From the IMG/VR virus record IMGVR_UViG_3300025162_000035: 19,963 bases of DNA; one strand, 5' to 3'. Positions 1,589-16,172 of the stretch are shown piece after piece; position 1 is the stretch's first letter; each line of letters begins with the position of its first letter. The notes beneath the pieces are model-generated. The model worked only from the letters and a program-made list of their open reading frames with translations. It was not told where the DNA came from and did not search any database. This stretch comes from a virus (lineage: Duplodnaviria > Heunggongvirae > Uroviricota > Caudoviricetes). The position numbers were made by a program, and so were the translations under genes.

Positions 1589-1900
1589 ATGAAAATTAAA
1601 CGGTTTAACGAAATATCAGTTGGGCAGCCATGGGATAGTCAAGCGCACAGAGAATTTTCAATTGATATGAGTGTTGTAAAGGCTCACGATAGCACACCAA
1701 ATTATTTATCAATTATTAGAAGTATGATTAGAAAGGGTGAAGGTAAAGTTTGGGTGAATAATATTGAAGGTAATACAGCACACATTAGATCGTGGCAGTT
1801 TGATATTCTTGGTGATGCAACGGTTCCAGTTGAAGCATTAAAAGGTTTTAGTATGAAATCATGGACTACTAATAACGTAGCAAAAAAATTTGATATGTAA
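1589..1900 (+). CDS. Hypothetical protein, MKIKRFNE.../...KKFDM tagged family
   Basis: Start moved to ATG 1589 after the TTAATATATA motif; family N- and C-terminal motifs. Confidence 0.75.
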   Translation: MKIKRFNEISVGQPWDSQAHREFSIDMSVVKAHDSTPNYLSIIRSMIRKGEGKVWVNNIEGNTAHIRSWQFDILGDATVPVEALKGFSMKSWTTNNVAKKFDM

Positions 1901-2449
1901 CTATCCTTTATAAATTTTTATCATGTATGGTGGTATGTTACCTTTAATTCTAAACCCATGACCATATAAAGCACTATCCCCAAGAGAATTACCACAATCA
2001 ATATTACTGTGCAATCTTTTGTTTCTTAGTTGATCAGCATCTGGTTTTAAATGGTATATTGGTGCATCGATTTCATACACTGTAATTTTGTTGTATGGAT
2101 ATGACATTTCGCCAAATGTTTTAGCCATTGATGGAAAGAGTGACAAATATGTAAATCCTGGTTGGCTTTGCAAACTTTTTTTGGTTGATTCTTTGGTTTT
2201 CATCAACCCCTGATTCATTATATCATGTTCATCAGATGTTCCATGGTAAAGTTTAAGGCAAGCAAATTTGTTAGCTCTAAGGAATTTATTCACAGCTTCA
2301 ATATCTTTAGGTGTTGGGTCTTTGTAGAGCAAAGTTTTAAATGGCTCAGTTGTCATTGGATCAATAACCTTTGGGGTAAATGAAGTGGCAACTGGTGATA
2401 TTTTGTGCCCGATGTAGGAATTTTCGAATAGCTCAAATTTTGTGATCAT
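1901..2449 (-). CDS. Putative ADP-ribosyltransferase-fold protein
   Basis: LYHGTS...I...GL, then FTYLS...AKTFG and VYEID, matching the ART/Tpt1-like strand order; MITKFELFEN start. Confidence 0.55.
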   Translation of the reverse strand: MITKFELFENSYIGHKISPVATSFTPKVIDPMTTEPFKTLLYKDPTPKDIEAVNKFLRANKFACLKLYHGTSDEHDIMNQGLMKTKESTKKSLQSQPGFTYLSLFPSMAKTFGEMSYPYNKITVYEIDAPIYHLKPDADQLRNKRLHSNIDCGNSLGDSALYGHGFRIKGNIPPYMIKIYKG

Positions 2450-2486
2450 AAGCTATATATAATTTTTTATTTTTTATATATAGGCT

Positions 2487-3353
2487 ATGAAGTATTTGAA
2501 AACTTTTTTAGAATCAGCCGATAGTCCAGACCTTGTTGGAAGATTTTCACCAGCGGAAATGCGGACCGCAGCCACAAATGATGACCAATTTGCTGAAAAG
2601 TCAATGAGACCATTTGTTAAAGGCTGGTATGCTGGTAAAGCTGGTAAAGCATCCTCAGATTTGGAAGATATGATGAATGATAATCGATGGGGTACTATGG
2701 GAAGCAAATACGGAATATCTGATTATTTTTACAAAAATCTTTTATCTAAAGTCCCAGAATTTGAAGGATGTAAATTAAGAGTCGATGATAATAAAGAAGA
2801 TGGCAAAATTGGTTTTTATGTTGGTAAAAAACACCGAATTATAGGGACAAAATATGAAGCAGCATTAGAAATTTGGGTTCATTTTCATACAAAATATATT
2901 AAAGTATTCAACTATGAAAAAGGAAAAATAAAACTTCTTTTTTCTTGTGGAACAAACGATGCTATTGAAGGCTCAATTAATAGGGCTGATACACAAGATG
3001 AAGATAAATTATTCGATAAGATTTTGACTGATATTTTAAAAGATCATCCTGACAAAAAATACTCAACATCATTACAGGTCTATGGTAAAAATTTAAATAA
3101 GGATTCATTCTTAAAAAAATTGCCACAAGTCAGAAAGGACTTCAAATATTTTGAAAATTACGTTATTCCTCAGGCAATATTTGAATTTCAGGAACATCTT
3201 TATTTGAATAATTTTCCAAGGTTTTTTGAATTAATAATGCATAGTGATGATAAATCGTATGATGATATATCACCAAGAATTCTTGCAAAATATAAAAATC
3301 AAATACCACAAAAAATTAAGGTTGGAGTAAGTTCCGCCAGATTCGATTTATGA
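2487..3353 (+). CDS. Hypothetical protein, MKYLKTF.../...RFDL family
   Basis: 288 aa ORF with family termini. Confidence 0.85.
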   Translation: MKYLKTFLESADSPDLVGRFSPAEMRTAATNDDQFAEKSMRPFVKGWYAGKAGKASSDLEDMMNDNRWGTMGSKYGISDYFYKNLLSKVPEFEGCKLRVDDNKEDGKIGFYVGKKHRIIGTKYEAALEIWVHFHTKYIKVFNYEKGKIKLLFSCGTNDAIEGSINRADTQDEDKLFDKILTDILKDHPDKKYSTSLQVYGKNLNKDSFLKKLPQVRKDFKYFENYVIPQAIFEFQEHLYLNNFPRFFELIMHSDDKSYDDISPRILAKYKNQIPQKIKVGVSSARFDL

Positions 3354-3733
3354 GAATAGTAAAATTTAATGAGAAATTGTCAACTGCTGAAGTTGAGTTT
3401 GCGGAAAGTTTCAAAGGTTCTTTGAGCGGTGATATTACTGATTATATTTTAACAGTGTATAAAGAAACCAAATTACCGAAAGAAGAAATAAATGACATTT
3501 TTAATTCAAAATATATTGAAAAATATTTAAGTGTTGATCAGGATATTCAAAAACTCGAAAAACAAATAGAAAATCTTACTAAGAATAAAGATTACTATGA
3601 ACTTGATGCCACCTCTGAAGCAGTTTATTTATTACAGGAAAAATTAATCTTCAAAGATTTCGCAAGTTTATATCGTTTGTATATGGATCGTAGAGGTAGT
3701 GGTGGGTTTGATCCTGATAATGATGAAGAATAG
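3350..3733 (+). CDS. Hypothetical protein (MRIVKFNE start)
   Basis: 127 aa, ATGA overlap with upstream gene. Confidence 0.8.
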   Translation: MRIVKFNEKLSTAEVEFAESFKGSLSGDITDYILTVYKETKLPKEEINDIFNSKYIEKYLSVDQDIQKLEKQIENLTKNKDYYELDATSEAVYLLQEKLIFKDFASLYRLYMDRRGSGGFDPDNDEE

Positions 3734-3828
3734 GTCGAATCTGCGTGAAGAAAGATAAGTTTTTAAACGTTTATCAATTTCTTCACGATATTTTTCTAAT
3801 ATTCTTGGGTGAAGGTCATAAAGTGAAT

Positions 3829-4273
3829 ATGATAAAGAAATTCAAAATATTTGAAAATCGTGATCGGTCTGAAGAAGTCCTATTAGGTCAAATTGTATTT
3901 AAATTTGATGAATTGAGAACTACTGGATTTTTTAATTGATCATATTATTCGCAAGTTTGATTTGAATTGGTACAATTGCTTAAAAACAAAGGATTCCCCA
4001 AAAATAGAATATGGTGATTATATATATTATGATGGGTTTGTTAATCCTAAAGTAATCAAAAATGTTGAAGCAACCTTTCAGGGTGTTAAGTTCAAAAGAT
4101 TGAACGTTAATCTTAAGAGTAGCTTTAATTATACATTTCAAGATGATGAAGGATATTACATAAGCAAGGACGTAAATATTCCAATATCAATGTTAAAAAG
4201 TTATTGGGATTCATTTCAAATGTATAAGATCGATGTCACCAATTATTTTAATTATCAAAAGTTCGATCTTTAA
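3829..4273 (+). pseudogene. MIKKFKIFE.../...KFDL family gene split by a +1 frameshift near 3916-3934
   Basis: Frame 1 MIKKFKIFEN...KFDEL stops at 3937; frame 2 is open from 3917 (ELLDFLIDHIIRKFDLNWY...QKFDL). Confidence 0.6.
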
Positions 4274-4285
4274 TCAGTTACTTAT

Positions 4286-4357
4286 GGCGAGGTAGTTCAG
4301 AGGCAGAACAGTTGAATCATAATCAACAAGTCGGGATTTCGAAATTCCCTCTCGCTA
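4286..4357 (+). tRNA. tRNA with CAU anticodon (elongator Met or Ile2)
   Basis: Acceptor GGCGAGG/TCTCGCT, GTTGA-ATCATAA-TCAAC; lacks initiator GGG/CCC stem. Confidence 0.88.
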
Positions 4358-4521
4358 CAAATTAGAAAGTTCATATCAAATATAATAAAAAAATTAAAAT
4401 TGAATAAATGCAGAACGGCAGTATGCGGTTGTGTGCAGCGGGGATCGTGACCCTAACCGTCAACAGTTCGACTCTGAACGGGCATGGTTAGCAATATCAC
4501 AACTTTACTCAGTTTTTTCAT

Positions 4522-4594
4522 GGGCTCTTAGTATAATTGGTTAGTATAGGTCCCTGATAAGGATCAGACCTTGGATCATTCCCAAGAGAGCCTA
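4522..4594 (+). tRNA. trnI: tRNA-Ile(GAU)
   Basis: Acceptor GGGCTCT/AGAGCCT, GGTCC-CTGATAA-GGATC, T-loop ATCATTC. Confidence 0.85.
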
Positions 4595-4604
4595 CTTCCC
4601 AAAT

Positions 4605-4681
4605 CCAGATGTATCCGCTCACTCTTATAAGGTGTAGAAACGGTAATTGGTCACATGAAGGTTCGATGCCTTCCATCTGGA
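4605..4681 (+). tRNA. Rearranged tRNA, Ile(UAU) anticodon, no conventional D arm
   Basis: Acceptor CCAGATG/CATCTGG, CACT-CTTATAA-GGTG, T arm GAAGG-TTCGATG-CCTTC; AATTGG D-loop motif lies 3' of the anticodon arm. Confidence 0.72.
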
Positions 4682-4686
4682 CAAAT

Positions 4687-4759
4687 GGTCGGTTAGGATA
4701 ATAGGTGAGTCTGCATGCCTTATAAGCAAGCGATGGGGGTTCAAAGCCCTCACCGACTA
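4687..4759 (+). tRNA. trnI: tRNA-Ile(UAU)
   Basis: Acceptor GGTCGGT/ACCGACT, loop CTTATAA, T arm GGGGG-TTCAAAG-CCCTC. Confidence 0.85.
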
Positions 4760-5788
4760 CAAAGAAACACAGGTTGTTGGTTTACAATTATTATAAAATT
4801 TTTCATTCATACTTTTATTATATTGAAAAGAAATATAATCATTTTCTTCACAGTATTTTTCTAATGATTCTTTTTTGGGTATAATTGTTTTATAATAATA
4901 ATCCCATTTCCTTTGTAAATCTTTATTAGATATTATTGTCTTACATTCAACAATATAAATTCCTTGTGTTGTTGTTATTTTGAAATCTGGGTTATATTTT
5001 TTGGTTATACCATCAATTACAAAATTTATTAAAAAATTACATCTTTCTATATTTAAAACTACAAAATTTTTCTCAAAGTAATTCAAACAACTATATTCAA
5101 CTTTAGAATCACATCTTATTAATTTATCCTTGTATTTATAGCGGCATTTTATACTTTTTAATTTTGGTTTAAATATGCCATCTTTTATTTTATTGCTCAC
5201 AAGTTTAGATAAATTTTCTTTTATTTCTTTTGTCATTGAACCTTTTGATGCACAACTAACACTACAATATTTTTGTTTATTTCTTCTTACCCATTTAGAT
5301 TTGTATTCTTTATGACAGTATTCACAATTTTTTTCAACATATTTTGGATTTGTGTTTTTTATAGTCTTTATTTTAATTTTTTTATTTTCAAATCTTTTTT
5401 TAGATGCACAACTAACACTACAAAATTTCCTATGCCTGACACTCCATTTTAATTCAAATTCTGAATTACAATATAGACACACTTTTTTAATTGTATCTGG
5501 TAAGCCTTTTTTTAAAGTGATTCTAATTTTATTTTTTGTTTTTTCTGGCATTTTTTTATTTTTATTAGTTTTTGATGCAGAACAAGACATCGAACAAAAA
5601 GTATTCCTTCTTTTATCATATTCAATTATATTTGAACAATTTAAACATAATTTTGGTTTTTTATTATAAATATCTATTCTATTTTTTTTAAGAACTTTTA
5701 TTTTCTCTAAAGATTTTTGGTTAGCCTTTTTATTATTTTCGAAAATTTTACCAGATTTATAATAATCCGAATTTTTAATACTTGCCAT
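4757..5788 (-). CDS. Putative free-standing endonuclease: three Cys4 Zn-binding repeats plus C-terminal TnsA-like PD-(D/E)XK domain
   Basis: Three CxxC...F/YCSxSC repeats; C-terminal RCDSKVE...YNPDFKI...YIVECK. Confidence 0.7.
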   Translation of the reverse strand: MASIKNSDYYKSGKIFENNKKANQKSLEKIKVLKKNRIDIYNKKPKLCLNCSNIIEYDKRRNTFCSMSCSASKTNKNKKMPEKTKNKIRITLKKGLPDTIKKVCLYCNSEFELKWSVRHRKFCSVSCASKKRFENKKIKIKTIKNTNPKYVEKNCEYCHKEYKSKWVRRNKQKYCSVSCASKGSMTKEIKENLSKLVSNKIKDGIFKPKLKSIKCRYKYKDKLIRCDSKVEYSCLNYFEKNFVVLNIERCNFLINFVIDGITKKYNPDFKITTTQGIYIVECKTIISNKDLQRKWDYYYKTIIPKKESLEKYCEENDYISFQYNKSMNEKFYNNCKPTTCVSL

Positions 5789-5869
5789 CGTTTTTTAGTT
5801 TATATATAAAATAAAAAAAGTCGTATTTATTCAACTCGAACTCAAATTTTCAATTTATAGGCACAAAAA

Positions 5870-5944
5870 GGATATATAGCTCAGTTGCGTTAGAGCGCAT
5901 CGCTGATACCGATGAGGTCGTAGGTTCAAGTCCTACTATATCCA
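5870..5944 (+). tRNA. trnI: tRNA-Ile(GAU)
   Basis: Acceptor GGATATA/TATATCC, CATCG-CTGATAC-CGATG, T arm GTAGG-TTCAAGT-CCTAC. Confidence 0.93.
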
Positions 5945-5949
5945 CATAT

Positions 5950-6022
5950 TCCTCCTTAGCTCAGTTGGTAGAGCAGCAGTCTGTTAAACTGCGGGCCGCT
6001 GGATCGTGACCAGCAGGGGGAG
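5950..6022 (+). tRNA. trnN: tRNA-Asn(GUU)
   Basis: Acceptor TCCTCCT/AGGGGGA, G73, GCAGT-CTGTTAA-ACTGC, T-loop ATCGTGA. Confidence 0.92.
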
Positions 6023-6025
6023 CAA

Positions 6026-6409
6026 TTAAAGATCAAATTTTTTACCAGTGGTTTGGCTTTTAATATCTTTAAGTAATTGGATGATTTCAGGTGTAGGATC
6101 GTGGATTACAATTTTTCGGAAGTCTGGAATTTTGGCACCCATCGGTGCGCCATTATAATCGAAGTTCACCCAGACCCCGTCTCTATCATCACTTTGAATT
6201 TTTGTGATCACTTTTTTTATATTTGGAGTTTTGGTTGAATCATAGAACGAGATCGTTCTACCTACAATTAGTTTATTCAGATATTCCATAAAACGTTTGA
6301 AGTCGTAGGTATCTTCTTTGGAATGCCCGAATAATTTTCTTAGATCGGATATATGGAAGTAGGTTCCAGTGTCTGATGGTCGTTTAAAGTCTTCGAATAT
6401 TGTGATCAT
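6026..6409 (-). CDS. Hypothetical protein, paralog of the 9986-12834 array family
   Basis: Start reassigned to MITIFEDF at 6409; F.I.D...F, L..L.VG.TI and I.IHD.P...KKFDL motifs shared with array members. Confidence 0.8.
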   Translation of the reverse strand: MITIFEDFKRPSDTGTYFHISDLRKLFGHSKEDTYDFKRFMEYLNKLIVGRTISFYDSTKTPNIKKVITKIQSDDRDGVWVNFDYNGAPMGAKIPDFRKIVIHDPTPEIIQLLKDIKSQTTGKKFDL

Positions 6410-6506
6410 ACAGTATATATTATTTTTAAATTCAGAATGTTTGTCTGTGATTGGGTGCACCACGCAGATAATAAATGGAAAAATGTGGTTAGAGCCCACC
6501 GTTCTG

Positions 6507-6583
6507 AGCGTGGCGTAGCTGAAGTCCAAGAAAGAGTGTAGGTGATAGTGACAAATGTGGGTTAGACTCCCACCGCATACGCT
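6507..6583 (+). ncRNA. Degenerate tRNA-like element
   Basis: T arm GTGGG-TTAGACT-CCCAC, bulged acceptor AGCGTGGCG/CGCATACGCT, TAGCT start; no clear anticodon arm. Confidence 0.35.
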
Positions 6584-6585
6584 AT

Positions 6586-6930
6586 TTAAAGATCAAATCT
6601 TTTAGTTATCAAATTTCGATTATAATTTTCAATTGCTTTTTTTGCTGCACGAATATCGGGCCCACGATAAAGGACTTTAAGTGGATTATCAGTGACTTCG
6701 GTATAAACTCCTGTTGGGAGTCGATACATTTTCCATTTTCTTTTTGTAGCTTTTGTATTTAGATCAAAAACATCAGCAGAAGTTATTATCCCGTAACCAT
6801 TATCATAGGTTTTTGTTATTTTTACAATTAGTAGATCACCATCATCACAAAGTAAAGAGAAATAATCGCCTTCAGCAAAAGATGCTATTTTGGATATATC
6901 TGACATATAATTTTCAAACTTTTTGATCAT
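6586..6930 (-). CDS. Hypothetical protein, MIKKFE.../...KRFDL family
   Basis: 114 aa, family termini. Confidence 0.8.
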   Translation of the reverse strand: MIKKFENYMSDISKIASFAEGDYFSLLCDDGDLLIVKITKTYDNGYGIITSADVFDLNTKATKRKWKMYRLPTGVYTEVTDNPLKVLYRGPDIRAAKKAIENYNRNLITKRFDL

Positions 6931-6952
6931 ATTCTATATATAAAAAAGAAAT

Positions 6953-7022
6953 TGAGAAAATGCCAACAGGAACGTAACCAACAACGGGCTTGAACCGTGA
7001 AACATCAACTGGCATTTTCTCA
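6953..7022 (+). ncRNA. Divergent member of the ACAGCAA anticodon-stem-loop ncRNA family
   Basis: 13-bp outer stem TGAGAAAATGCCA/TGGCATTTTCTCA, ACAGGAA motif, inner hairpin ACGG-GCTTGAA-CCGT. Confidence 0.5.
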
Positions 7023-7029
7023 CCTATAA

Positions 7030-7141
7030 GGGATTATAGTTTAATGCACCTATAACGGGATTCCAAAAAAGATGAAAGGGGTGTAGGTAGAATTCTGGGG
7101 CGCATAACCCAGCGATATGGGTTCGAGTCCCATTGCTCCCG
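7030..7141 (+). tRNA. Atypical CAU-containing (initiator-like) tRNA with enlarged D loop
   Basis: Acceptor GGGATTA/TGCTCCC (6/7), CTGGG-GCGCATAA-CCCAG, T arm ATGGG-TTCGAGT-CCCAT, ~47-nt D-loop region. Confidence 0.55.
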
Positions 7142-7147
7142 CAAATG

Positions 7148-7175
7148 AAAAAGCCAATCTTTCGATTGGCTTTTT
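7148..7175. terminator. Bidirectional intrinsic terminator
   Basis: AAAAAGCCAATC-TTTC-GATTGGCTTTTT between convergent units. Confidence 0.85.
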
Positions 7176-7186
7176 CTAAAATTTAG

Positions 7187-7933
7187 TTAGTTTTGTAATA
7201 CCCAGAAGTCATAAGCAAGACCTTTGGTGAAGTAAGTGTATGGTAAATAAAAATATCCATGATCACCCCAGCTTGCGCCCCAAGAATTTCGGCACACAAA
7301 CCATTTCTTATCATCATTATAACCGATTATAAGGACAGCATGACCACCTAAAAGTTGTTCACTTTTTTTTGGTAGTGGAACTTTGCCAGTTTTTGCTACT
7401 GCGGCTGATTCAAATGATTCATAAACATCCATCCCAGTTAAAACTGGTTTTTGTTGAAGAACCAAAACTTGTTTAATTTGATCCTGAGTTGCTACTGAAA
7501 TATATGATTTTATTTTATATTTCAAAGCATTTGTAACGGCAGCGTTTGTTGGGGTAACAGCAAATTTTGTGATATCATATGGGAAATAAGACTCTTCACA
7601 GATACCATAAGTTTGCATTGCTTTACCAATGTCCCTCATTTGTGCTCCACCGTCTTGAGAAATGTCACCTTCAATCTTTCTTTCTTCGAAATATTGAAAA
7701 AGACGAGAAAGATTAACTGTTAATTTATTTAGCATCACTCGTGCAGCAACACCAGCGTTAGCAGTGCAGCTACCCAATTGTCCTTGGTCATATACAAGTG
7801 GGCATTGTGCAATTAGAGTGAATATTTTGGGTATTGTAATTTTAACTGAAGGGTGTATATCTAACACGGATTTTAATTGAAGGTCCCTTTCATCTGGGGT
7901 TTGCTTCTTTAAATTATATATGTGGTTTGCCAT
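7187..7933 (-). CDS. Papain-like cysteine peptidase (C1 family)
   Basis: DQGQLGSCTANA (Gln, Cys), GGHAVLIIGY (His), RNSWG (Asn); start reassigned to MANH at 7933. Confidence 0.92.
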   Translation of the reverse strand: MANHIYNLKKQTPDERDLQLKSVLDIHPSVKITIPKIFTLIAQCPLVYDQGQLGSCTANAGVAARVMLNKLTVNLSRLFQYFEERKIEGDISQDGGAQMRDIGKAMQTYGICEESYFPYDITKFAVTPTNAAVTNALKYKIKSYISVATQDQIKQVLVLQQKPVLTGMDVYESFESAAVAKTGKVPLPKKSEQLLGGHAVLIIGYNDDKKWFVCRNSWGASWGDHGYFYLPYTYFTKGLAYDFWVLQN

Positions 7934-7962
7934 AGTTTTTTTTTTTATTGTATATATTAATT

Positions 7963-7970
7963 TACCTTTG
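7963..7970 (+). promoter_or_regulatory. Bacteroidota-type -7 promoter element TAnnTTTG
   Basis: TACCTTTG ending 17 nt upstream of ATG 7987. Confidence 0.45.
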
Positions 7971-7986
7971 TACAAAATGTGAATTT

Positions 7987-8373
7987 ATGAGCCCAGATGC
8001 ATATATGAAATATCAAATTGAACAGCTTCATAAGCTGTTTCGTGAGATTGGTATTGATCAGTATACTCACGGTATGCCACCAATGGGGGAAGAGGATATG
8101 GGTCCTCACTACAATTCATATGTATTTAAGGCACCTCTTGCTGAAAATAGAAAAGTAAATGGTAAAATGTGCTATCTTCGAGGAGATTTTAGAATTCATC
8201 TTAACAGTGATACAAATTATATCACTGGTGTATATTTCTGTCATGTTTGGTTTCCTAATGGTCGAACCGATGAAATTAGGTCTAAAGATATTATGGGTGT
8301 AAAAAAGTTCATTGAAAAATATGAGCACGTATTCAATCCAAAGATTAAAATTCAAAAACGTTTTGATTTATAA
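7987..8373 (+). CDS. Hypothetical protein ending KRFDL
   Basis: Start reassigned to ATG 7987; family C-terminus. Confidence 0.75.
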   Translation: MSPDAYMKYQIEQLHKLFREIGIDQYTHGMPPMGEEDMGPHYNSYVFKAPLAENRKVNGKMCYLRGDFRIHLNSDTNYITGVYFCHVWFPNGRTDEIRSKDIMGVKKFIEKYEHVFNPKIKIQKRFDL

Positions 8374-8375
8374 CG

Positions 8376-8618
8376 TTATTTTTTCTTTAGAAGTTCAATC
8401 TCTTCTTTTAAAAGATTCATAATAATAGTATCATTTTTTAATTGTAAATGATTTAGGCTATCATTGATTTTAATAGCTTTGTTGTTTTCATCTGCCATCT
8501 TATTTGTTGCTTGCATTATATTCCTATTTTCTCCAAAGTAATCAACAGCAAATAACCCACCAATAATAAGCACAACAAATAGAATAAATAATAATATATT
8601 ATCTTGAATATTTTTCAT
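8376..8618 (-). CDS. Small membrane-anchored hypothetical protein
   Basis: N-terminal hydrophobic helix ILLFILFVVLIIGGLFAV followed by coiled-coil-like region. Confidence 0.7.
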   Translation of the reverse strand: MKNIQDNILLFILFVVLIIGGLFAVDYFGENRNIMQATNKMADENNKAIKINDSLNHLQLKNDTIIMNLLKEEIELLKKK

Positions 8619-8660
8619 TCGAGGTTTTATTTGTATATAGTAATTTTTGAAAGTTCAAAT

Positions 8661-8750
8661 GTACAGTTAGTCAAGAGGTCGAAGACATCAGACTGTTAAT
8701 CTGACGCAGCGAAAGCTCCACCATAGGTTCAAATCCTATACTGTACGCCA
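8661..8750 (+). tRNA. tRNA with Asn(GUU) anticodon and long variable arm
   Basis: Acceptor GTACAGT/ACTGTAC, G73-CCA, TCAGA-CTGTTAA-TCTGA, variable hairpin AGC-GAAA-GCT. Confidence 0.88.
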
Positions 8751-8756
8751 TTAAAT

Positions 8757-8841
8757 GCACCGTTATCCGAGTGGTCGAAGGAATCAGGTTGTTACCCTGC
8801 CGAGCTACGGCTCCACGTGAGTTCGAATCTTACACGGTGCG
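8757..8841 (+). tRNA. tRNA with Asn(GUU) anticodon and long variable arm
   Basis: Acceptor GCACCGT/ACGGTGC, CAGG-TTGTTAC-CCTG, variable hairpin GAGC-TACG-GCTC. Confidence 0.85.
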
Positions 8842-8842
8842 C

Positions 8843-8911
8843 ATAAGTGTTTTTCACGAAAAGTGGTTAATTTTAACCACTTTTCACGAGAAATAAGCAT
8901 TTTTCACAAAA
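8843..8911. repeat. 13-bp perfect hairpin with three TTTTCAC direct repeats
   Basis: GAAAAGTGGTTAA-TT-TTAACCACTTTTC (8858-8885); TTTTCAC at 8851, 8881, 8901. Confidence 0.6.
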
Positions 8912-8913
8912 TT

Positions 8914-8981
8914 AGGATTGAAGGATACACACAGCAACTAAAAAAACTTGACTGTCAATCAAACAACACGTATCCTGTTCT
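8914..8981 (+). ncRNA. ACAGCAA-family ncRNA copy 1, Asp(GUC) anticodon loop
   Basis: AGGATAC/GTATCCT stem, ACAGCAA, TTGA-CTGTCAA-TCAA. Confidence 0.75.
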
Positions 8982-8990
8982 TAAAAAATT

Positions 8991-9060
8991 GAGGATAAAG
9001 AATACCTACAGCAATTAAAAAACTTGTCTGCAAAACAAACCAATGCGTATTCTGTTTCTC
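8991..9060 (+). ncRNA. ACAGCAA-family ncRNA copy 2, Cys(GCA) anticodon loop
   Basis: AGAATAC/GTATTCT stem, ACAGCAA, TTGT-CTGCAAA-ACAA. Confidence 0.75.
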
Positions 9061-9085
9061 TTTTTTTATTTTAATATATATGTTC

Positions 9086-9649
9086 ATGAAGTATATTAAA
9101 ATGTTTGAAGAAATGAAATCGTGGGATATTGCTAAGTATTTCGAAGAGTTGAGAGATGCGATGACTGCTGGCAAATTGGATAAAGTAAATAGTATTATTT
9201 TTGAAGCCCCTGACGTTGTTTTTTGGCAAGATAATGATAATAGTGCTGGATGGACAGCTCTTATGTGGGGGGTGGCTGACCACACTGACACAAAAGTTGA
9301 CATAATCAAAGTCTTAATTAATGCTGGGTCTAATGTTAATGCTACTGATAATTTTGGATGCACTGCTTTAATTCATGCCGCAACTATTGATTTAGATAGA
9401 TCAACTGATAAACATCAAGCCTTAGGACAAACTAAAGAAATTCTTAAATTGTTATTAGATTCTGGTGCTAATCCATATATTAAAGATTTTGAACCAGATG
9501 AGGATGAAAAATATTATGTAAATTATACAGGCGGAGAGGATTGGTATGATCATGCGACTCCAGATATTAAACAATGGATTGAAGAAAATTGCCCAGAGTT
9601 TTGGGCAAAGAAGAGACGTGAATTGGCTCAGAAAAGGTTTGATTTATAA
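9086..9649 (+). CDS. Ankyrin-repeat protein with MKYIKMFEE/KRFDL termini
   Basis: GWTALMWG...IIKVLINAGSNVNATDNFGCTALIHAA...ILKLLLDSGANPYIKD. Confidence 0.9.
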   Translation: MKYIKMFEEMKSWDIAKYFEELRDAMTAGKLDKVNSIIFEAPDVVFWQDNDNSAGWTALMWGVADHTDTKVDIIKVLINAGSNVNATDNFGCTALIHAATIDLDRSTDKHQALGQTKEILKLLLDSGANPYIKDFEPDEDEKYYVNYTGGEDWYDHATPDIKQWIEENCPEFWAKKRRELAQKRFDL

Positions 9650-9668
9650 TCGTAAAAATTATTTATAT

Positions 9669-9753
9669 GTTGCATTATGCAAGCGGTTAAAGCAGTAAGG
9701 CTCTCAACCTTACCCCTTTACAGGGTTCGTGGGTTCAAATCCCACATGCAATA
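9669..9753 (+). tRNA. tRNA with Glu(CUC) anticodon and long variable arm
   Basis: Acceptor GTTGCAT/ATGCAAT, TAAGG-CTCTCAA-CCTTA, variable hairpin CCCT-TTAC-AGGG. Confidence 0.87.
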
Positions 9754-9754
9754 C

Positions 9755-9827
9755 TGAGATTAAAGAAAACTTACAGCAATTCACAAAAATTTGACTCTTA
9801 ATCAAACCAATCAGTTTTCTGTTCTCA
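9755..9827 (+). ncRNA. ACAGCAA-family ncRNA copy 3, Lys(CUU) anticodon loop
   Basis: AGAAAAC/GTTTTCT stem, ACAGCAA, TTGA-CTCTTAA-TCAA. Confidence 0.75.
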
Positions 9828-9830
9828 AAT

Positions 9831-9904
9831 GCTCCCATCGTCTAATGGTTAGGACATCAGGTTTTCATCCTGAAGATTTGCGGGTTCGAGCCCCGCTGGG
9901 AGTA
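9831..9904 (+). tRNA. trnE: tRNA-Glu(UUC)
   Basis: Acceptor GCTCCCA/TGGGAGT, TCAGG-TTTTCAT-CCTGA, T arm GCGGG-TTCGAGC-CCCGC. Confidence 0.93.
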
Positions 9905-9985
9905 CTTAGATAAAAACCATTATTGAACTTTTATTCTGATAAATGGAAAAAAGGAAGAAATATGAAATTCAGAACATATTTATAA

Positions 9986-10408
9986 CTACAAATCAAATCG
10001 TTGTTGGGTTTTTTGTCGTTCTATTTCTGTTAGAACATTTTTTGCAAAAGCACGAAGCTCATCATAAATGAATAATACTGTAGTGTCGTCAAGGGCGTAT
10101 GCCATTTCAGAACCATCAGAATTTGTAATTCCATCAAAATATACTACCCAAAGCAGACTTCGATCTTTATCCTTATTAAAAAATGCTTTATTGTTTTTTT
10201 CTAAATCTATTTTTGAAACAATACCATGTTGCTCAATACTATCTGATCGTCTCAAATGAATTTCTTTATTCAGAAGTAATGATCGTAGAAATTTTTCTTC
10301 TTTATATGAATCCCAATCTTTTTTTGATGTTATATAATCAAACACATCACAAATATTTACGGTGTATTTATGTTTTTTATATTCTTCAAATAGTTTAATA
10401 TGTATCAT
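9986..10408 (-). CDS. Tandem-array paralog (MIHIKLFE/QRFDL)
   Basis: Family termini and core motifs. Confidence 0.88.
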   Translation of the reverse strand: MIHIKLFEEYKKHKYTVNICDVFDYITSKKDWDSYKEEKFLRSLLLNKEIHLRRSDSIEQHGIVSKIDLEKNNKAFFNKDKDRSLLWVVYFDGITNSDGSEMAYALDDTTVLFIYDELRAFAKNVLTEIERQKTQQRFDL

Positions 10409-10791
10409 AGATCAAATCTATTTTCTGTTTTACGTTTTCTTATTTCGTTGAACACTTTCTTTGCTTCTTCAGAAATTTCATCATAAACACCAATTTTAGT
10501 GGTTAGCCCTATAACTGCGGATGTTGTTTTTGTACCAAAGTAAAAATAATAAACGTCAATTTGTGGATGTTTAATGTTGGTAAGAATTTTTTCTACAGAT
10601 AAATATACTCCGCTTGAAAGAAGCCTAATCTTTTTACCTATCAAATTTTTTTCTATAAAATCTTCTGACCAATATAGATGATGAAGTGGGCTCACATCAA
10701 AATATGAATCTAATTCCCCAATGGTAAATAAAAATTTTGGGGAGCCAATATCTAAATTATCTAAATCTTCAAATAATTTCAAATATCTCAT
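10405..10791 (-). CDS. Tandem-array paralog (MRYLKLFE/NRFDL)
   Basis: Family termini; ATGA overlap. Confidence 0.88.
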   Translation of the reverse strand: MRYLKLFEDLDNLDIGSPKFLFTIGELDSYFDVSPLHHLYWSEDFIEKNLIGKKIRLLSSGVYLSVEKILTNIKHPQIDVYYFYFGTKTTSAVIGLTTKIGVYDEISEEAKKVFNEIRKRKTENRFDL

Positions 10792-11198
10792 AGATCAAAT
10801 CTTTTTTGAATGTTAATGTTGGCAATTATCTTTCTTAAATCGTTTGGAATTTCGTCATAAATATCTATTGTATTTTCTCTATTCGGATAGACCCACGAAT
10901 CATCTTCCATTAGAAAGTAGTATGCGAATTTATCATTTTGAATCCTAACATCAATATTAATTACATCTTTAGGTTTAAGGGTGATATTGTTCACCAATAT
11001 AGTTTTATGAAGTAGAGTTTTTCTTAAGAATATTGTTATAAGATCAATAGCATCCCATTCCATATCTGGCACTATTTCATTCCATTCTGGTGATACGACA
11101 CCACGCTTATATTTGGTTGATGTAAAAAATGATTCTATATCTCCAATATTAATTGAATATTTTGGTGTAGTGTCTTCAAATAACTTCAAATATTTCAT
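10788..11198 (-). CDS. Tandem-array paralog (MKYLKLFE/KRFDL)
   Basis: Family termini; ATGA overlap. Confidence 0.88.
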   Translation of the reverse strand: MKYLKLFEDTTPKYSINIGDIESFFTSTKYKRGVVSPEWNEIVPDMEWDAIDLITIFLRKTLLHKTILVNNITLKPKDVINIDVRIQNDKFAYYFLMEDDSWVYPNRENTIDIYDEIPNDLRKIIANINIQKRFDL

Positions 11199-11635
11199 AG
11201 ATCAAATCTTTTTCCTATAAATGTTGCTGATAAGTTTTTCATATATGGCTGGTTATATAGTTTATCAAAACTCCCAATGACTTTAAATCTATCGATTTCT
11301 GTTAATGATTTTTTCACTAATTCTTTCTCCTGAATTGGTATTAAATAAGAAACATCATCATTTGCAAAAGTTCTTTTTAAATATTTTTCTAACTCATTTC
11401 TATTTTCTACAGATAAAGATTTTTTTGATATTCTATATGTTTCTAAAAAAATTCCGTCTAAATTTATTATGAGTGCTTGCTGGTGTGACCAATTTTTCAT
11501 ACTTGTATAATAAGTAAACCTGATATTATCGAGATTAAGTAACCAATAATTTATTTCTATGGTTTTTTGTAATTCATAGAATATTTTTTTCAAAGGTTCC
11601 ATATCATAGCTTTCAAATAATTTCAAATATTTCAT
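11195..11635 (-). CDS. Array gene with family termini but divergent core
   Basis: MKYLKLFE/KRFDL; lacks the clear IYDEIP motif of its neighbours. Confidence 0.85.
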   Translation of the reverse strand: MKYLKLFESYDMEPLKKIFYELQKTIEINYWLLNLDNIRFTYYTSMKNWSHQQALIINLDGIFLETYRISKKSLSVENRNELEKYLKRTFANDDVSYLIPIQEKELVKKSLTEIDRFKVIGSFDKLYNQPYMKNLSATFIGKRFDL

Positions 11636-12054
11636 AGGTCGAATCTTTCTTGAGTTTTTATTTTTTCAATATCTTCCAGTATTCTTTTTGATTTAACTGG
11701 AATATCATCATAAATATTAATTTTGGTTGCTTCTCCTATATCAGTTTTTAAATTAAATGATTTTCTATCATTTTTAAAATATACAGTAAATACCAGAGAA
11801 TATCCAAAGCTTTTATTTGCGGTAATATCTTTAACCGTGTATTCATATTGACTAATATTATCATTGATTATATCCACTTTTTTTCCGATGAGTGTTTTCT
11901 TTAAAAATTCCAGTGCATCAATTTTGGATTTGGTCCATATAAAATCATTTGTTTTGGTATCATCTGATATTTTATTATAAAAATATTCTCCTATATCATA
12001 AAGTTTAAATGAGTGCAGTGGCTTCACATTTTCAAACAATTTCAAATATTTCAT
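11632..12054 (-). CDS. Tandem-array paralog (MKYLKLFE/ERFDL)
   Basis: Family termini; INIYDDIP motif. Confidence 0.88.
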   Translation of the reverse strand: MKYLKLFENVKPLHSFKLYDIGEYFYNKISDDTKTNDFIWTKSKIDALEFLKKTLIGKKVDIINDNISQYEYTVKDITANKSFGYSLVFTVYFKNDRKSFNLKTDIGEATKINIYDDIPVKSKRILEDIEKIKTQERFDL

Positions 12055-12437
12055 AGATCAAATCTTTTTTGTGTATTCATCTTTTTAATTTTGAGAAGTA
12101 CTTTTTTGGATTCTTCTGGAATTTCATCATATACTTGTACAGTTCCAGTTGGATTTAAGTATGGAAATATTTTCTTATTATCTATCATATTGATGCCACA
12201 TATTTTAAATTGATAAAACTGAGCTTCTATCGCTGCTTCTTGATTAGTATAATTAATAGTTTTAACTCTAACCATAGGGGTAATAAATTTAACTTTTAGC
12301 CTGTTGCCGATCAAAGTCGTTCTTAAGAATTTTAAAATTTCATTAGCATCATTGAAATATTCAATAACATCTTCCATTTTGAATATGTATAATGGAGATA
12401 AATTTATATCGTTTTCAAACAATTTCAAATATTTCAT
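12051..12437 (-). CDS. Tandem-array paralog (MKYLKLFE/KRFDL)
   Basis: Family termini; VQVYDEIP motif. Confidence 0.88.
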   Translation of the reverse strand: MKYLKLFENDINLSPLYIFKMEDVIEYFNDANEILKFLRTTLIGNRLKVKFITPMVRVKTINYTNQEAAIEAQFYQFKICGINMIDNKKIFPYLNPTGTVQVYDEIPEESKKVLLKIKKMNTQKRFDL

Positions 12438-12450
12438 ACGTTATTATTTT

Positions 12451-12834
12451 TTAAAGGTCGAACCTACTCCCTATTTTATTGCTTTTTATTTCTTTGAATA
12501 TTTTTACAAGTTCTGGATCATCTGGGTAATCAACCGTAATTATAGATTTAGATTCGACAGCATATGGCATACCACTAATAAAGTAGAAAGTATATTCATA
12601 TGCTATCCAAGGAACGTTAAATCTGACATTTTCAACGTCTATATTGGTTAGTTTGGCTCTAATTTCTGTTTCATTTCTTTTTGAAGAATATTTAACTTCT
12701 TTATTTAGCAATAGCTTATTCAATATATATTTGGCATTACCAATATCTATATTATGTTTTTTAAAATATTCTTCCAAATCACCAAATTTGAAGATCAACT
12801 TATTAACATTTTCAAACAATTTCAAATATTTCAT
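12451..12834 (-). CDS. Tandem-array paralog (MKYLKLFE/SRFDL), first gene of the array
   Basis: Family termini; preceded by TTTTATATATA on the minus strand. Confidence 0.88.
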   Translation of the reverse strand: MKYLKLFENVNKLIFKFGDLEEYFKKHNIDIGNAKYILNKLLLNKEVKYSSKRNETEIRAKLTNIDVENVRFNVPWIAYEYTFYFISGMPYAVESKSIITVDYPDDPELVKIFKEIKSNKIGSRFDL

Positions 12835-12866
12835 ATCGATATATATAAAATATCAAAATAAAAAAT

Positions 12867-12943
12867 GCCTCACTATTGGCCCAGTTTTCGAAACTGGAGA
12901 CGCATAACGGATGAAAATGTGGGTTCGAATCCCTCGTGAGGTA
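12867..12943 (+). ncRNA. tRNA-like element with replaced D/anticodon region
   Basis: Acceptor GCCTCAC/GTGAGGT, T-loop TTCGAAT; centre is hairpin CCAGTTT-TCG-AAACTGG plus a poorly paired CGCATAAC. Confidence 0.55.
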
Positions 12944-12952
12944 CAAATAAAT

Positions 12953-13027
12953 GCGCTCGTAGCTCAATTGGATAAGAGTTTAGGTTTGCGAAATCTAAAG
13001 ATGTGAGTTCAAGTCTCACCGAGCGTA
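12953..13027 (+). tRNA. trnR: tRNA-Arg(GCG)
   Basis: Acceptor GCGCTCG/CGAGCGT, TAGGT-TTGCGAA-ATCTA, T arm GTGAG-TTCAAGT-CTCAC. Confidence 0.88.
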
Positions 13028-13084: not shown

Positions 13085-13092
13085 TATATTTG
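13085..13092 (+). promoter_or_regulatory. Bacteroidota-type -7 promoter element TAnnTTTG
   Basis: TATATTTG(CA) about 24 nt upstream of ATG 13116. Confidence 0.55.
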
Positions 13093-13115
13093 CAGTAAAT
13101 CTAAAAGTATAAAAT

Positions 13116-14666
13116 ATGAAAACTATCAAAACCTCTAATAAAATATATTGGGCTCCATCTGATTTTTTGGAAGTGCTAAATAAGTTGAATTCGTCTCCAA
13201 CATCCTCATTAACTGCCAACAATAAATCAACCGATGGATTAAATATTGATGAAATTACAGGTAAGAAAATCATGATTCTTCATCGTTGTGTTAAAGAGGG
13301 GTCTAATACAACATTGAGATTAAAAGAAATAGCAGACAATATATTATCAGGAAAATGGGATCGTCACCCATTTCGTCAACGACCATTCACTTGGAAAGAT
13401 TCGAGGCAAATTCCATTTATTACAACTCTTTTAAAAAATTGCATTAAAAGTAGTACTAATGGATCAATGGCTATTGCTCCTATCTTTATCACCAAAAACA
13501 TTGAAGATAAAACTTACGTGGATGACGGATGGCAAAGGAGTAGTACTATACATCGGTTTGTGTATGGAAATCTTGAAATAAAGGGATATGATGCAGCATG
13601 GATTATTGGATTTTTCATTTTTCAGTTTATTGAATGTGCCAATAATGAATATCACCCAAACAGAAAATATTTTGTTGATACTCTGAAAAACCTTCATGCT
13701 GGGAATTTCAAAAAATTGGTCATTACGTATAAAAATCTTCCAGAATCGGTAAAAAATGAGTTTGATGATTTAGTAATGTCTGTACGTCATTTAATCATTG
13801 AGACAAGTACTTATGATTTTGAAACTGGTAAGATAACAATACGTCAGCAAGATTTAACAACAGAAAGCCCATTATGGGAGTGGTTTGTGAATGTTCAATT
13901 AGGTCAGGAAGCTATGACTAAGAAAGATGTTATCATGGCAATTCAAAATGATATCAATTATAAAACAATTGATATCAGTTATGATTTATCTACATTCTTT
14001 TTCAAAGATTCATATCAAGGACGAATGATAAATCAATCATTAATAGAAGCCTTATTATGTGTAACTGGAAAGGCTGCTATGAATAACACAAAGCAATCAA
14101 TCGATTATTTGAATAAGAACAGATTTCATGACTCCAAAAGTCCTGAGATGTTATTACTTCAAAAATTAGATTGGAATGTAAGATTGTTTTATAAAAACCA
14201 TTCAAATAGATTCAACGATTGCAAATTTAAAATGTCGCTAACTGATCTTAAATTTTATTGGTATTTATTATTATCTAATTGGGATAAATTATATTCAACT
14301 AACGGTGATGTTAGATTCCCTTTTACTTATAGTAATGAAATAAATAAAAATTATTTCAAATTTTTAGAAGTTTTAAGAGATATATCAGGTATTATCAGTA
14401 AAATAAGAAATGTTTATGATTCTAAATTGGGAAAGAAACCGTCCCAAAAAGAAATTAATGAAGTTTATGAATATGCTCTAACAATTGGTGACGATAAATT
14501 AAAGATGTTTACTATTACATATTTGACATCCTTGGTTGATTTTGCATCATTAACAAGAAATACTAAAAAGTTTTCAGCTTTTTTAAAAAATGAGGATGTG
14601 AAATTAAAAATCGATAAGATTATAGATTGTATTATTGAGCACTATAAATTTAAAAGAATAAATTAA
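13116..14666 (+). CDS. DUF262-like (ParB/sulfiredoxin fold) domain protein
   Basis: HPFRQRPFTW...FITTLLK...APIFI...YVDDGWQRSSTIHRF resembles the DUF262 QRxYxW...DGQQRxTT signature. Confidence 0.65.
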   Translation: MKTIKTSNKIYWAPSDFLEVLNKLNSSPTSSLTANNKSTDGLNIDEITGKKIMILHRCVKEGSNTTLRLKEIADNILSGKWDRHPFRQRPFTWKDSRQIPFITTLLKNCIKSSTNGSMAIAPIFITKNIEDKTYVDDGWQRSSTIHRFVYGNLEIKGYDAAWIIGFFIFQFIECANNEYHPNRKYFVDTLKNLHAGNFKKLVITYKNLPESVKNEFDDLVMSVRHLIIETSTYDFETGKITIRQQDLTTESPLWEWFVNVQLGQEAMTKKDVIMAIQNDINYKTIDISYDLSTFFFKDSYQGRMINQSLIEALLCVTGKAAMNNTKQSIDYLNKNRFHDSKSPEMLLLQKLDWNVRLFYKNHSNRFNDCKFKMSLTDLKFYWYLLLSNWDKLYSTNGDVRFPFTYSNEINKNYFKFLEVLRDISGIISKIRNVYDSKLGKKPSQKEINEVYEYALTIGDDKLKMFTITYLTSLVDFASLTRNTKKFSAFLKNEDVKLKIDKIIDCIIEHYKFKRIN

Positions 14667-15310
14667 TTTCCAAGATGTTCCAATTTGGCTTTTCTTAAAA
14701 AAGATTCAAATTCTTTCTTTGTAATTATTTCGCCTTGTGTAAGATAATGATCCCTCATACCTGATGAACCAATACAAACAACAGGGACTTTTATTTCTGA
14801 TTGAAACCTGAAATTACGAAATTCATTTTCTCTCATTTGATAGTTAATTCCACCTTCAGGCCCCATCTTTTGCCAGCCATCTACCATATCTGGGGTTCTA
14901 ATAACTATTGCAAGCACCGCCATTCCTTTATAGGTAACACACGTATCTTTACACAATTCATCAAATTTTGAATCAACGGTATTTCTTTGGTACCATCTAT
15001 CCAGAACAATTCCTTGTGTGATCATATGATCAAATGGCAATCTTTTATTTATTTTCTTAAGATGCTTGATGAGTTTAATTCGAGCGTTATTGTTTAACCC
15101 AAGTAATAAATCTGGTGGGTGTTGGTGATAATCATCATTATCCTCATAGATATGCAAACTTAAAAGTTCTGGAAACTTTTCACAAAAACTATAATATTCA
15201 TTATCTTTGCATTTCCTATTAGGTTCATTTACTTGTACTATCATTTTTCGATTTTGATATAATGTTTTCAGTACTTGATACATTTGATAAAATGGATTTC
15301 CTTCTTTCAT
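14663..15310 (-). CDS. Hypothetical protein
   Basis: 215 aa ORF, convergent with 13116-14666 via a shared TTAA. Confidence 0.75.
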   Translation of the reverse strand: MKEGNPFYQMYQVLKTLYQNRKMIVQVNEPNRKCKDNEYYSFCEKFPELLSLHIYEDNDDYHQHPPDLLLGLNNNARIKLIKHLKKINKRLPFDHMITQGIVLDRWYQRNTVDSKFDELCKDTCVTYKGMAVLAIVIRTPDMVDGWQKMGPEGGINYQMRENEFRNFRFQSEIKVPVVCIGSSGMRDHYLTQGEIITKKEFESFLRKAKLEHLGN

Positions 15311-15388
15311 ACAATATATTTAACTTTATCTAAGTTTTTTAATATATAGTATTGTTTTTGATGTAAAGTTAAAAAAATTAAAATTTTT

Positions 15389-15604
15389 ATGAAAAGGCTT
15401 GATGAAATAAAAAGGGGGTTAGAAATTCGTAATAAAAGGTTAAATCGGTTAAAAAGTATAAATGCCCCAGATGTTATACTTCAAAACGAATCAAAAATGA
15501 TTGAAGAATTAACACAAGAACTAAGTAAACAACCAGAAGAAATAGCAAGAAAAAGAAAAGAAAAATTAAACAAATTAAATAAAACAGATGAAAAAACCAC
15601 CTAA
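15389..15604 (+). CDS. Small coiled-coil hypothetical protein
   Basis: 71 aa, charged helical composition. Confidence 0.65.
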   Translation: MKRLDEIKRGLEIRNKRLNRLKSINAPDVILQNESKMIEELTQELSKQPEEIARKRKEKLNKLNKTDEKTT

Positions 15605-16172
15605 GTTAAAAATGTTTGAATCTTACGTTTATGATATTAAGCCTGATCTGGAGCGCATGAATAGAATGAATATTGAAATTGCGAATACTCAGAAGAAGTT
15701 GTATGCTAATAATGAAAAAAATGTTGAATTGATTGTAAAATTGATGGACGTTTTATATAAAGAGTATAATCGTGATAGGAGTCCTGAGGATGAAGAAGAG
15801 TTGGTATTTGATAATATTGAAATAAGCACCCCACCGTTATCTCAATCCCAAAATGGAGCATCTAAAAGAGAAATTACATTCTATAAAATTAAAACACAGG
15901 ATTTAAAAGGTAAGTTTAGTCTTCATCTATCTGATAGCTGGTATATCAGGCATTATGCTGGGGTGAATTGCCACGTGTACTACACAGAAAAAGATATAAT
16001 CACTGGTATGAATTCAAGAGCTGAGCAGTCTGATGATAGTTTATGGTATATGAGGGGTAAAAATGATGATTTTGAACCAGTCGCATATTTATTAGATGGT
16101 ATGATCAAAGCATTTCCAGCCGCATGGAAGCAAGTTGGAGTTAATGAAAAAACAAAAAGGTTCGATCTTTAA
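15588..16172 (+). CDS. Hypothetical protein, ...KLKMFES/KRFDL family
   Basis: 194 aa with family termini. Confidence 0.82.
   Translation: MKKPPKLKMFESYVYDIKPDLERMNRMNIEIANTQKKLYANNEKNVELIVKLMDVLYKEYNRDRSPEDEEELVFDNIEISTPPLSQSQNGASKREITFYKIKTQDLKGKFSLHLSDSWYIRHYAGVNCHVYYTEKDIITGMNSRAEQSDDSLWYMRGKNDDFEPVAYLLDGMIKAFPAAWKQVGVNEKTKRFDL

Follow-up and report, generated by a model that had tools for sequence, protein, structure and literature searches.

The current study concerns a 19,963-nucleotide (nt) stretch of DNA from an uncultured freshwater phage (Caudoviricetes; IMG/VR record IMGVR_UViG_3300025162_000035), hereafter the window, in which the products of a gene cluster between positions 1,589 and 16,172 share two short peptide tags: an N-terminal leader (N-tag) with the consensus M-K-Y-[LI]-K-x-F-E-[NDE] or the variant M-I-T-K-F-x-x-F-E, and a C-terminal motif (C-tag), [KR]FD[LM], which directly precedes the stop codon. 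Both tags exist, both are selected as peptides at the protein level, and they are separable, modular, and portable, being carried by a shifting repertoire of small, otherwise unrelated proteins. Our favored interpretation, held tentatively and at slightly less than an even chance, is that the N-tag corresponds to a T4-like head-loading signal and the C-tag to a second docking motif, both of them portable and acting at the level of the protein.

Occurrence of the two tags

The motif counting that the first-pass annotation of this DNA had proposed as a check was carried out on the window. A stop codon directly follows 15 of the 17 occurrences of [KR]FD[LM] in its six reading frames, versus a mean of 0.085 and a maximum of 1 in 200 dinucleotide-preserving shuffles; the stop positions of all 15 open reading frames (ORFs) that the annotation had listed with this ending were verified. 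The strict N-tag pattern (^M.{1,3}K.{0,1}F[EN], applied to ORFs of at least 60 residues) begins 12 ORFs of the window versus 0.05 in the shuffles, and looser forms (MKYLKTFLES, MITIFEDF, and ..KLKMFES) are found on three further carriers. An N-tag is present on 13 of the 15 C-tagged ORFs, in agreement with the earlier statement that most carriers start with M-x(1-3)-K-x-F-E/N. Of the ~54 other genes counted over the window and 18 kb upstream, ~4 have an N-tag, and the association of the two tags has a Fisher p of ~6e-9 on these approximate counts.

At the left end of the cluster, a 103-residue carrier (1589..1900, +) combines the N-tag MKIKRFNE with the C-tag KKFDM, and TATATA starts 10 nt before its ATG. 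The adjacent 182-residue protein with an ADP-ribosyltransferase (ART) fold (1901..2449, -) begins with MITKFELFEN and lacks a C-tag, the following 288-residue carrier (2487..3353, +) has MKYLKTFLES and ARFDL, and a 127-residue protein (3350..3733, +), whose ATG overlaps the stop codon of this preceding RFDL gene (ATGA), has only the N-tag MRIVKFNE. A decayed mini-cassette (3829..3964, +) retains the N-tag MIKKFKIFEN in a 37-residue ORF ending beside a T6 run, together with RKFDL in another frame (KFDL = 3953-3964), which has no stop codon after it and runs into the next C-tagged ORF. The latter (3962..4273, +), called as a gene with a TTG start at 3962, encodes 103 residues ending with QKFDL and has no N-tag. 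The remaining carriers outside the paralog family described below are a 114-residue protein (6586..6930, -) with MIKKFENY and KRFDL, a 128-residue protein (7987..8373, +) with KRFDL and the atypical N terminus MSPDAYMKYQIEQLHKLF, a 187-residue ankyrin-repeat protein (9086..9649, +) with MKYIKMFEE and KRFDL, and a protein of 186/194 residues (15588..16172, +) with the N terminus MKKPPKLKMFES and KRFDL. An N-tag-like KDFKYFENY was also seen inside the 288-residue protein, near residue 217, and the corresponding gene is possibly a fusion of two cassettes after the loss of a junction.

Kinship and structure of the carriers

The first-pass annotation regarded the carriers as unrelated proteins, which is correct for one part of them. 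Similarity outside the tags unites only eight of the 15 in a single paralog family (family A), which consists of seven tandem genes of the form MxxxKLFE...RFDL (9986..12834, -; individually 9986-10408, 10405-10791, 10788-11198, 11195-11635, 11632-12054, 12051-12437, and 12451-12834) and a dispersed 127-residue member (6026..6409, -; MITIFEDF and KKFDL) that matches the gene at 12451-12834 at an E value of 2e-4. Five junctions of the array are stop/start overlaps of the ATGA type (CTATGA). Family members are 23-37% identical along their length, with the ends as the best-kept parts, and have the C-terminal helix YDEIPxxxKKxLxEIxxxKTQxRFDL in common. Only 17 members were detected by a profile search among 1.8 billion representative proteins, and a word-index homolog search with one member returned near-identical copies only. 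Outside family A, at least five groups of carriers can be told apart besides the ankyrin protein, and here the claim stands: the latter is recognized by Pfam (Ank), and the tag-trimmed proteins starting at 1589, 2487, 6586, 7987, and 15588 reached hhalign probabilities of <5% against the family A profile. An ortholog of the ankyrin protein from another sample, 54% identical, retains both ends (MKYLKRFES and ELAQKRFDL), and cellular ankyrin proteins have neither tag.

The AlphaFold2 (AF2) model of family A (mean predicted local distance difference test score, pLDDT, 83; predicted template modeling score, pTM, 0.78) is a small beta-barrel with flanking helices, in which residues 1-6 of the N-tag fall below a pLDDT of 50 and RFDL lies at the end of the C-terminal helix. 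The model of the ankyrin carrier (pLDDT 68.5) likewise has residues 1-6 below 50 and the C-tag at the end of its C-terminal helix. According to both models, the N-tag is a flexible extension that does not belong to the folded domain. A clasp between N-tag and C-tag within one molecule is predicted in neither of them. Comparison of the family A fold with PDB and BFVD gave no convincing match (best E value 1e-3), the weak matches being small Sm/chromo-like barrels.

It is conceivable, but very improbable, that a single fast-evolving superfamily comprises all carriers in diverged form, the tags being simply its best-conserved ends. Family A with its well-kept termini would fit such a scenario, and the small carriers are too short for a firm exclusion. 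It conflicts, however, with the Pfam-confirmed ankyrin protein, with the N-tags on ART, NUDIX, and GNAT domain proteins, with the hhalign probabilities, with the position of the N-tag outside the fold in both models, and with the failure of the family A profile to find anything in the doubly tagged phage genome G002 (see below).

Selection at the peptide level

The 15 C-tags make use of six Lys/Arg codons, two Phe codons, two Asp codons, four Leu codons, and three stop codons, and 16 of the 17 departures from the commonest codon within F-D-L are synonymous; there are 10 distinct 12-nt DNA versions. Synonymous codons are chosen just as freely in the N-tags of other phages. Variable at synonymous sites but constant in their residues, the tags are selected as peptides. 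The possibility raised in the first-pass annotation that the motifs are explained only by DNA-level recombination repeats is thus not borne out, and conservation of the nucleotides including synonymous sites is not seen in the C-tags.

An explanation at the DNA level would be that the motifs are recombination or gene-conversion repeats bounding swappable cassettes. A junction of ~40 nt is indeed the sole well-conserved DNA of the tandem array, the 24-nt N-tag DNA recurs exactly in six IMG/VR contigs that have no other sequence in common with the window, and the remains at 3829-4273 and within 2487-3353 look like decayed or fused cassettes. We nevertheless give this explanation very little credence: the 10 versions among 15 C-tags differ almost exclusively at synonymous sites, the dispersed carriers keep the peptide and not the DNA, and recombination at the tags is probably a consequence rather than a cause. 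The ~40-nt junction may favor recombination within the array, but it cannot account for the dispersed carriers. Searches of IMG/VR with the exact RFDL/MKYLK junction DNA and with a degenerate pattern of this junction each had 0 matches.

Promoter motif and start codons

Every tagged gene heading a transcription unit is preceded by TATATA(TA), which ends 4-6 nt before the ATG. This applies to the genes starting at 1589, 2449, 2487, 6409, 6930, and 9086 and to the tandem array, with the promoter-like (A)ATATATA located at 1573-1588, 2450-2486, 6410-6425, 6931-6946, 9070-9085, and, on the - strand, 12835-12852. The N-tagged genes of five other contigs have the motif in the same position next to the ATG, and untagged genes of the window have it ~20 nt upstream. 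For the tagged unit-leading genes, leaderless mRNAs are therefore predicted. In the N-tagged phages G003 and LR756502, the genes for portal, protease-scaffold, and capsid protein are preceded, at a distance of 20-30 nt, by the same motif (AATATATA) that abuts the tagged genes. This fits a promoter class common to tagged genes and head genes and presumably late, as would be appropriate for cargo of the head.

The proximity of promoter motif and start codon also calls for a different explanation to be considered, i.e., that the N-tag is a feature of mRNA or translation (a leaderless or re-initiating start in a host that makes no use of Shine-Dalgarno sequences), the C-tag an ATGA context for termination and re-initiation, and the peptides themselves functionless. 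The placement of TATATA so close (4-6 nt) to the start codon of all tagged genes that lead a unit, here and in other phages, would be in line with this proposal, as would the five CTATGA overlaps of the array and the many C-tags of G002 that end with TTATGA. We judge it improbable, since the residues are fixed while synonymous sites vary, and the specific residues F7 and E8 are kept beyond what A/U-rich codons would require. N-tags occur alike on leaderless and on internally coupled genes, and the C-tags at 1900, 6026, 6586, 8373, 9649, 9986, 12451, and 16172 have no downstream gene that could be re-initiated.

Distribution of the N-tag

The first-pass annotation had described the ART-fold protein (1901..2449) as a carrier of the N-tag only, which holds as a structural lead: its neighbors in the Atlas are DarT/PARP, Arr, and ART-PolyVal (TM scores of 0.43-0.56), whereas Pfam gave no match, and a tblastn search against GenBank phages gave none either. 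A second ART, an ART-PolyVal protein (E value 3e-26), is encoded in the same genome ~18 kb upstream of the window (L015, 8865-9323); it also has an N-tag (MIKKFEKY) without a C-tag, and the same promoter motif abuts its ATG. Among further proteins with the N-tag alone, a NUDIX hydrolase was identified in G002, and a GNAT acetyltransferase in G003.

Other uncultured huge phages, in which the N-tag is found on dozens of unrelated proteins, were inspected with the degenerate pattern M-K-x-x-K-x-F-E, whose reversed control gave 0-1 occurrences per record. Strict N-tags number 27 in the IMG/VR contig G002 (501 kb), 8 in G001 (60 kb), 16 in the complete genome LR756502 (642 kb), and 12 in LR756504 (636 kb), versus 0 in both LR756501 (735 kb) and LR756500 (462 kb). 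The N-tagged proteins of LR756502 have no common C terminus. Among 20 strict-N-tag proteins of G002, pairwise BLASTP gave no match at an E value of <0.01, and the family A profile detected nothing in this genome despite 42 tag-triggered candidates.

Phage-specific variants of the C-tag

Generalized over all phages, the C-tag consists of a basic residue, an aromatic residue, D/N/G, an aliphatic residue, optionally a second aliphatic residue, and the free carboxyl group. The window has [KR]FD[LM] on 15 of 15 carriers, and contig L022 from the same sample has RFDL on three. Neighboring genes of L018 encode NKYNL, NKYGI, and KKYNL; L020 has SKFGL and KKFGL; and in L023, a family A member ends with KKYNL and a gene 4 kb away, which has no family A match, with EKYNL. 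In G002, KYNIL-stop was found at 26 sites versus 1 for the control pattern, and 13 of the 20 strict-N-tag proteins end with KKYNI(L). The C-tag is thus uniform within a phage and different between phages. Several untagged small proteins of L015 and L022, which lack the N-tag as well, were seen to have Lys-rich ends (...RKMKLKKIK and ...RKEKLKKLK).

Uniform within genomes and variable between them, the C-tags are most simply read as the imprint of a single partner, proper to each phage or host, that all carriers would have to fit. Gene conversion could produce the uniformity as well, but the synonymous variation argues against it. The C-tag might be a docking motif of a hitherto undescribed kind, an add-on whose variants are specific to the phage. 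Its interpretation as a second docking signal, already put forward in the first-pass annotation, fits both the protein-level conservation and these variants, with portal, clamp, and protease as candidate partners. The combination of uniformity within and variation between phages offers a route to the receptor, by covariation or peptide pull-down.

A further candidate function is that of a sliding-clamp-binding tail, as in T4 gp43, gp33, and gp55, by which the carriers would be tethered to DNA-loaded clamps. The C-tag does have the pattern hydrophobic, D/N, hydrophobic, (hydrophobic), COOH on a C-terminal extension, and the T4 clamp-binding tails, which are located at the extreme C terminus and are interchangeable between proteins (PMC2988020), are likewise portable peptides with hydrophobic and acidic residues. 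They differ in sequence and in the kind of carrier, however. A peptide like SLDFL[FY] is not present in the C-tag, since [KR]FDL resembles SLDFLFG of gp43 and SLDFLYEAND of gp55 only loosely, basic residues precede the C-tag, and the carriers look like accessory proteins and not like DNA enzymes, all of which makes a clamp-binding tail highly unlikely.

Head modules and the packaging reading

For two N-tagged phages, G003 and LR756502, a T4-type head module could be identified, comprising a Gp20-type portal protein (E value 8e-52) and a Gp23-type capsid protein (E value 4e-30). Both also encode an apparent protease-scaffold fusion (L013, 4724-6934, in G003; L044, 6821-8920, in LR756502), of which the first 140-180 residues weakly match Peptidase_S77 (hmmscan E value 3e-4, below the Pfam cut-off). 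The remainder is a scaffold with ~13-14 tandem EY[IL]AE[NSH]LDK repeats, which are close to the end of the T4 capsid-targeting sequence (CTS), EFIAE, and probably represent a built-in ladder of protease sites. A search for PF03420 over five N-tag contigs found nothing. The capsid protein of G003 is closest to those of uncultured phage genomes of 634-642 kb (61% identity) and is 30% identical to those of Lak phages. The window phage is linked to G003 and LR756502 by the shared tag and general features only. Prediction of a complex between the protease domain of G003 (residues 1-210) and an N-tagged 176-residue protein of the same phage had a score of 0.00, which gives no verdict.

By analogy with the CTS, we regard the N-tag with moderate confidence as a head-loading signal of this type. 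Beyond the tags themselves, we infer loading into the head, cleavage, and a C-tag partner, both that it exists and what it is. The N-tag would make its carrier bind to the prohead's scaffolding core and thereby become enclosed in the head, and tags with [LIM]-F-E could be clipped after Glu by the S77 (gp21-type) prohead protease. The C-tag would be a second short docking motif that some lineages have acquired on part of their N-tagged proteins and that is read by a single partner differing between phages, which is proposed as the reason why all carriers of one genome have the same variant.

Several observations weigh against this interpretation. Many tags have K, T, R, S, or Q at position P3 relative to the putative cleavage after F-E, which does not conform to the [LI]-x-E rule of T4. 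The connection to a T4-type head runs through other phages that share only the tag, no head module is present in the ~18 kb upstream of the window, and G002, which has both tags and is 70% complete, contains no match to the capsid or protease-scaffold proteins of G003. With 27 strict N-tags in G002 and 16 in LR756502, the tagged proteins of a genome, NUDIX and GNAT enzymes among them, number in the tens, far more than the cargo of T4. The uniformity of the C-tag within a genome could also be due to gene conversion or to a partner supplied by the host. Finally, part of the N-terminal conservation could serve translation initiation on the predicted leaderless mRNAs. The suggestion of the first-pass annotation that the N-tag may be a packaging signal is upheld in part: it gains from the resemblance to the leaders of T4 IPI and Alt and from the T4-type head modules of two N-tag phages, but [LI]-x-E occurs in only some tags.

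The abundance of carriers also raises the question of a destination other than the capsid. The tags might be protein-level address labels for a chaperone or adaptor, for a protease of timed degradation (the C-tag being a C-terminal degron), or for a common host hub. Hydrophobic-x-hydrophobic-COOH is the type of end that PDZ or Clp-type binders read, the ordinary enzymes NUDIX and GNAT are not classic virion cargo, carriers occur by the dozen per genome, and the Lys-rich ends of other small proteins of the same genome would suit a general habit of C-terminal addressing. We assign a modest probability to such labels, given that the N-tag fits the layout of the T4 CTS and the ART leader that of T4 Alt, that the promoter motif is common to tagged genes and head genes in relatives, and that no candidate receptor was found.

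The reading of the N-tag as a head-loading signal can be extended, with a lower and rather speculative probability, to a two-part cargo code of huge phages, in which the N-terminal leader loads the prohead and a C-terminal motif of 4-6 residues co-evolves with a phage-specific receptor, e.g., a component of the core, the portal, or the ejection apparatus, thereby deciding on retention, position, or ejection. If true, sequence alone would suffice to read the injected arsenal of uncultured phages, and the cargo of one phage would not be compatible with its relatives. If the tags load or dock proteins at all, those injected by a huge uncultured phage could be listed from its genome, in the present case ADP-ribosyltransferases, an ankyrin protein, and a fast-evolving family of small beta-barrels, each of which would likely act in host takeover or against defenses. 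Short portable tags are of interest as well for bringing foreign proteins into capsids, a use to which the T4 CTS is already put.

Genomic context of the tagged genes

The window is AT-rich (25-38% GC) and phage-like, with many small ORFs, and all sequencing runs containing it are freshwater or lake DNA runs. An exact search of IMG/VR with its own DNA had 0 matches, and a literature search with the tag strings yielded nothing relevant. Interspersed with the tagged genes are 14 tRNA genes (262-12953), including Ile(UAU); several of the calls, 'Asn' and 'Glu', are oversized (84-90 nt). Contig walking over ~18 kb upstream of the window encountered only small genes of no assigned function and no structural genes, and the 8 kb immediately upstream contain 0 tagged genes.

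Several neighboring genes are worth recording. Downstream of the tagged cluster, the phage carries type I CRISPR-Cas genes (16965-19963, +), namely, Cas6 (Pfam), a 192-residue protein without assignment, and a Cas3-like HD-helicase, with two further large genes following on a longer contig; no CRISPR repeat array was seen within the window. A 516-residue protein (13116-14666, +) weakly matches GmrSD_N (DUF262; E value 2.6e-5, under the cut-off). GmrSD is the enzyme class inhibited by T4 IPI. A 343-residue protein between tRNA genes (4757-5788, -) consists of repeated zinc-ribbon-like CxxC...CSxSC units and has no Pfam match, and a 77-nt tandem unit (8908-9056; Tandem Repeats Finder, 1.9 copies, 78% matches) is located in an intergenic region beside tRNA genes. 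In the middle of the tagged cluster, a papain-family cysteine peptidase is encoded (7187-7933, -; Pfam Peptidase_C1, E value 7e-18), which is unusual in a phage. As a tag-processing enzyme it receives no support, because no homolog was found in G002 or in four LR7565xx genomes; such a role of the papain-like peptidase is unsupported, and so are clamp binding and a degron function.

Comparison with known systems

The closest known counterpart of the N-tag is the CTS of the T4 internal proteins, whose function is known (PMC3012670, PMC9026906). The T4 leaders, as read from the genome, are MKTYQEFIAE (IPII and IPIII), MKTFKEFTS (IPI), and MELITELFDE (Alt), and in IPIII, targeting depends on residues 4 and 7 and processing on residues 8 and 10 (PMC9026906). 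The targeting layout, with a hydrophobic position 4 and Phe at position 7, recurs in the N-tag sequence MKY[LI]KxFE. Both systems have an M-K start, a hydrophobic or aromatic residue at position 4, Phe 7, and then Glu, and comparison with MKTFKEFT of IPI shows M1, K2, K5, and F7 in common, position 4 of the N-tag being hydrophobic. As in T4, a leader of ~10 residues is common to otherwise unrelated, fast-changing small proteins, in the window at 12 strict and 3 looser occurrences versus 0.05 expected. The ip genes of T4 flank a tRNA cluster in a plastic region, and the tagged genes likewise lie among tRNA genes. The differences are that the window phage has many more carriers and a shorter leader, that packaging is a proposal here, and that the T4 internal proteins lack a C-terminal tag, which most carriers have. 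With respect to processing, L/I/M-F-E stands at the leader end of the tandem family, the dispersed member at 6026, the ART-fold protein, and the ankyrin protein, whereas P3 is K, R, or T elsewhere.

T4 Alt is an ART enzyme with a leader, and MITKFELFEN of the ART-fold protein shares E6-L7-F8-acidic9 with MELITE|LFDE. Alt is cleaved after ITE-6 and at the C-terminal LTE-619, which demonstrates that a packaged protein can have signals at both termini (PMC5694885). It is, however, much larger (682 residues versus 150-180 here), its C-terminal propeptide comprises 63 residues versus the 4-5 of the C-tag motif, and the ART proteins of the window phage have no C-tag. In phiKZ, 201phi2-1, and SPN3US, many head and ejection proteins are loaded and cut after Glu by a gp21-related protease (PMC5694885), but the propeptides of these giant phages are long (up to >100 residues), share no short tag, and are cleaved at S/A/G-x-E.

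The C-tag has no described counterpart in T4. In encapsulins, short C-terminal cargo-loading peptides dock unrelated cargo inside an HK97-fold shell. These peptides have another consensus and act alone without an N-terminal signal, and a contact between C-tag and capsid protein would be hypothetical. New in the present data are the phage-specific variants of the C-tag and the promoter motif abutting the start codon.

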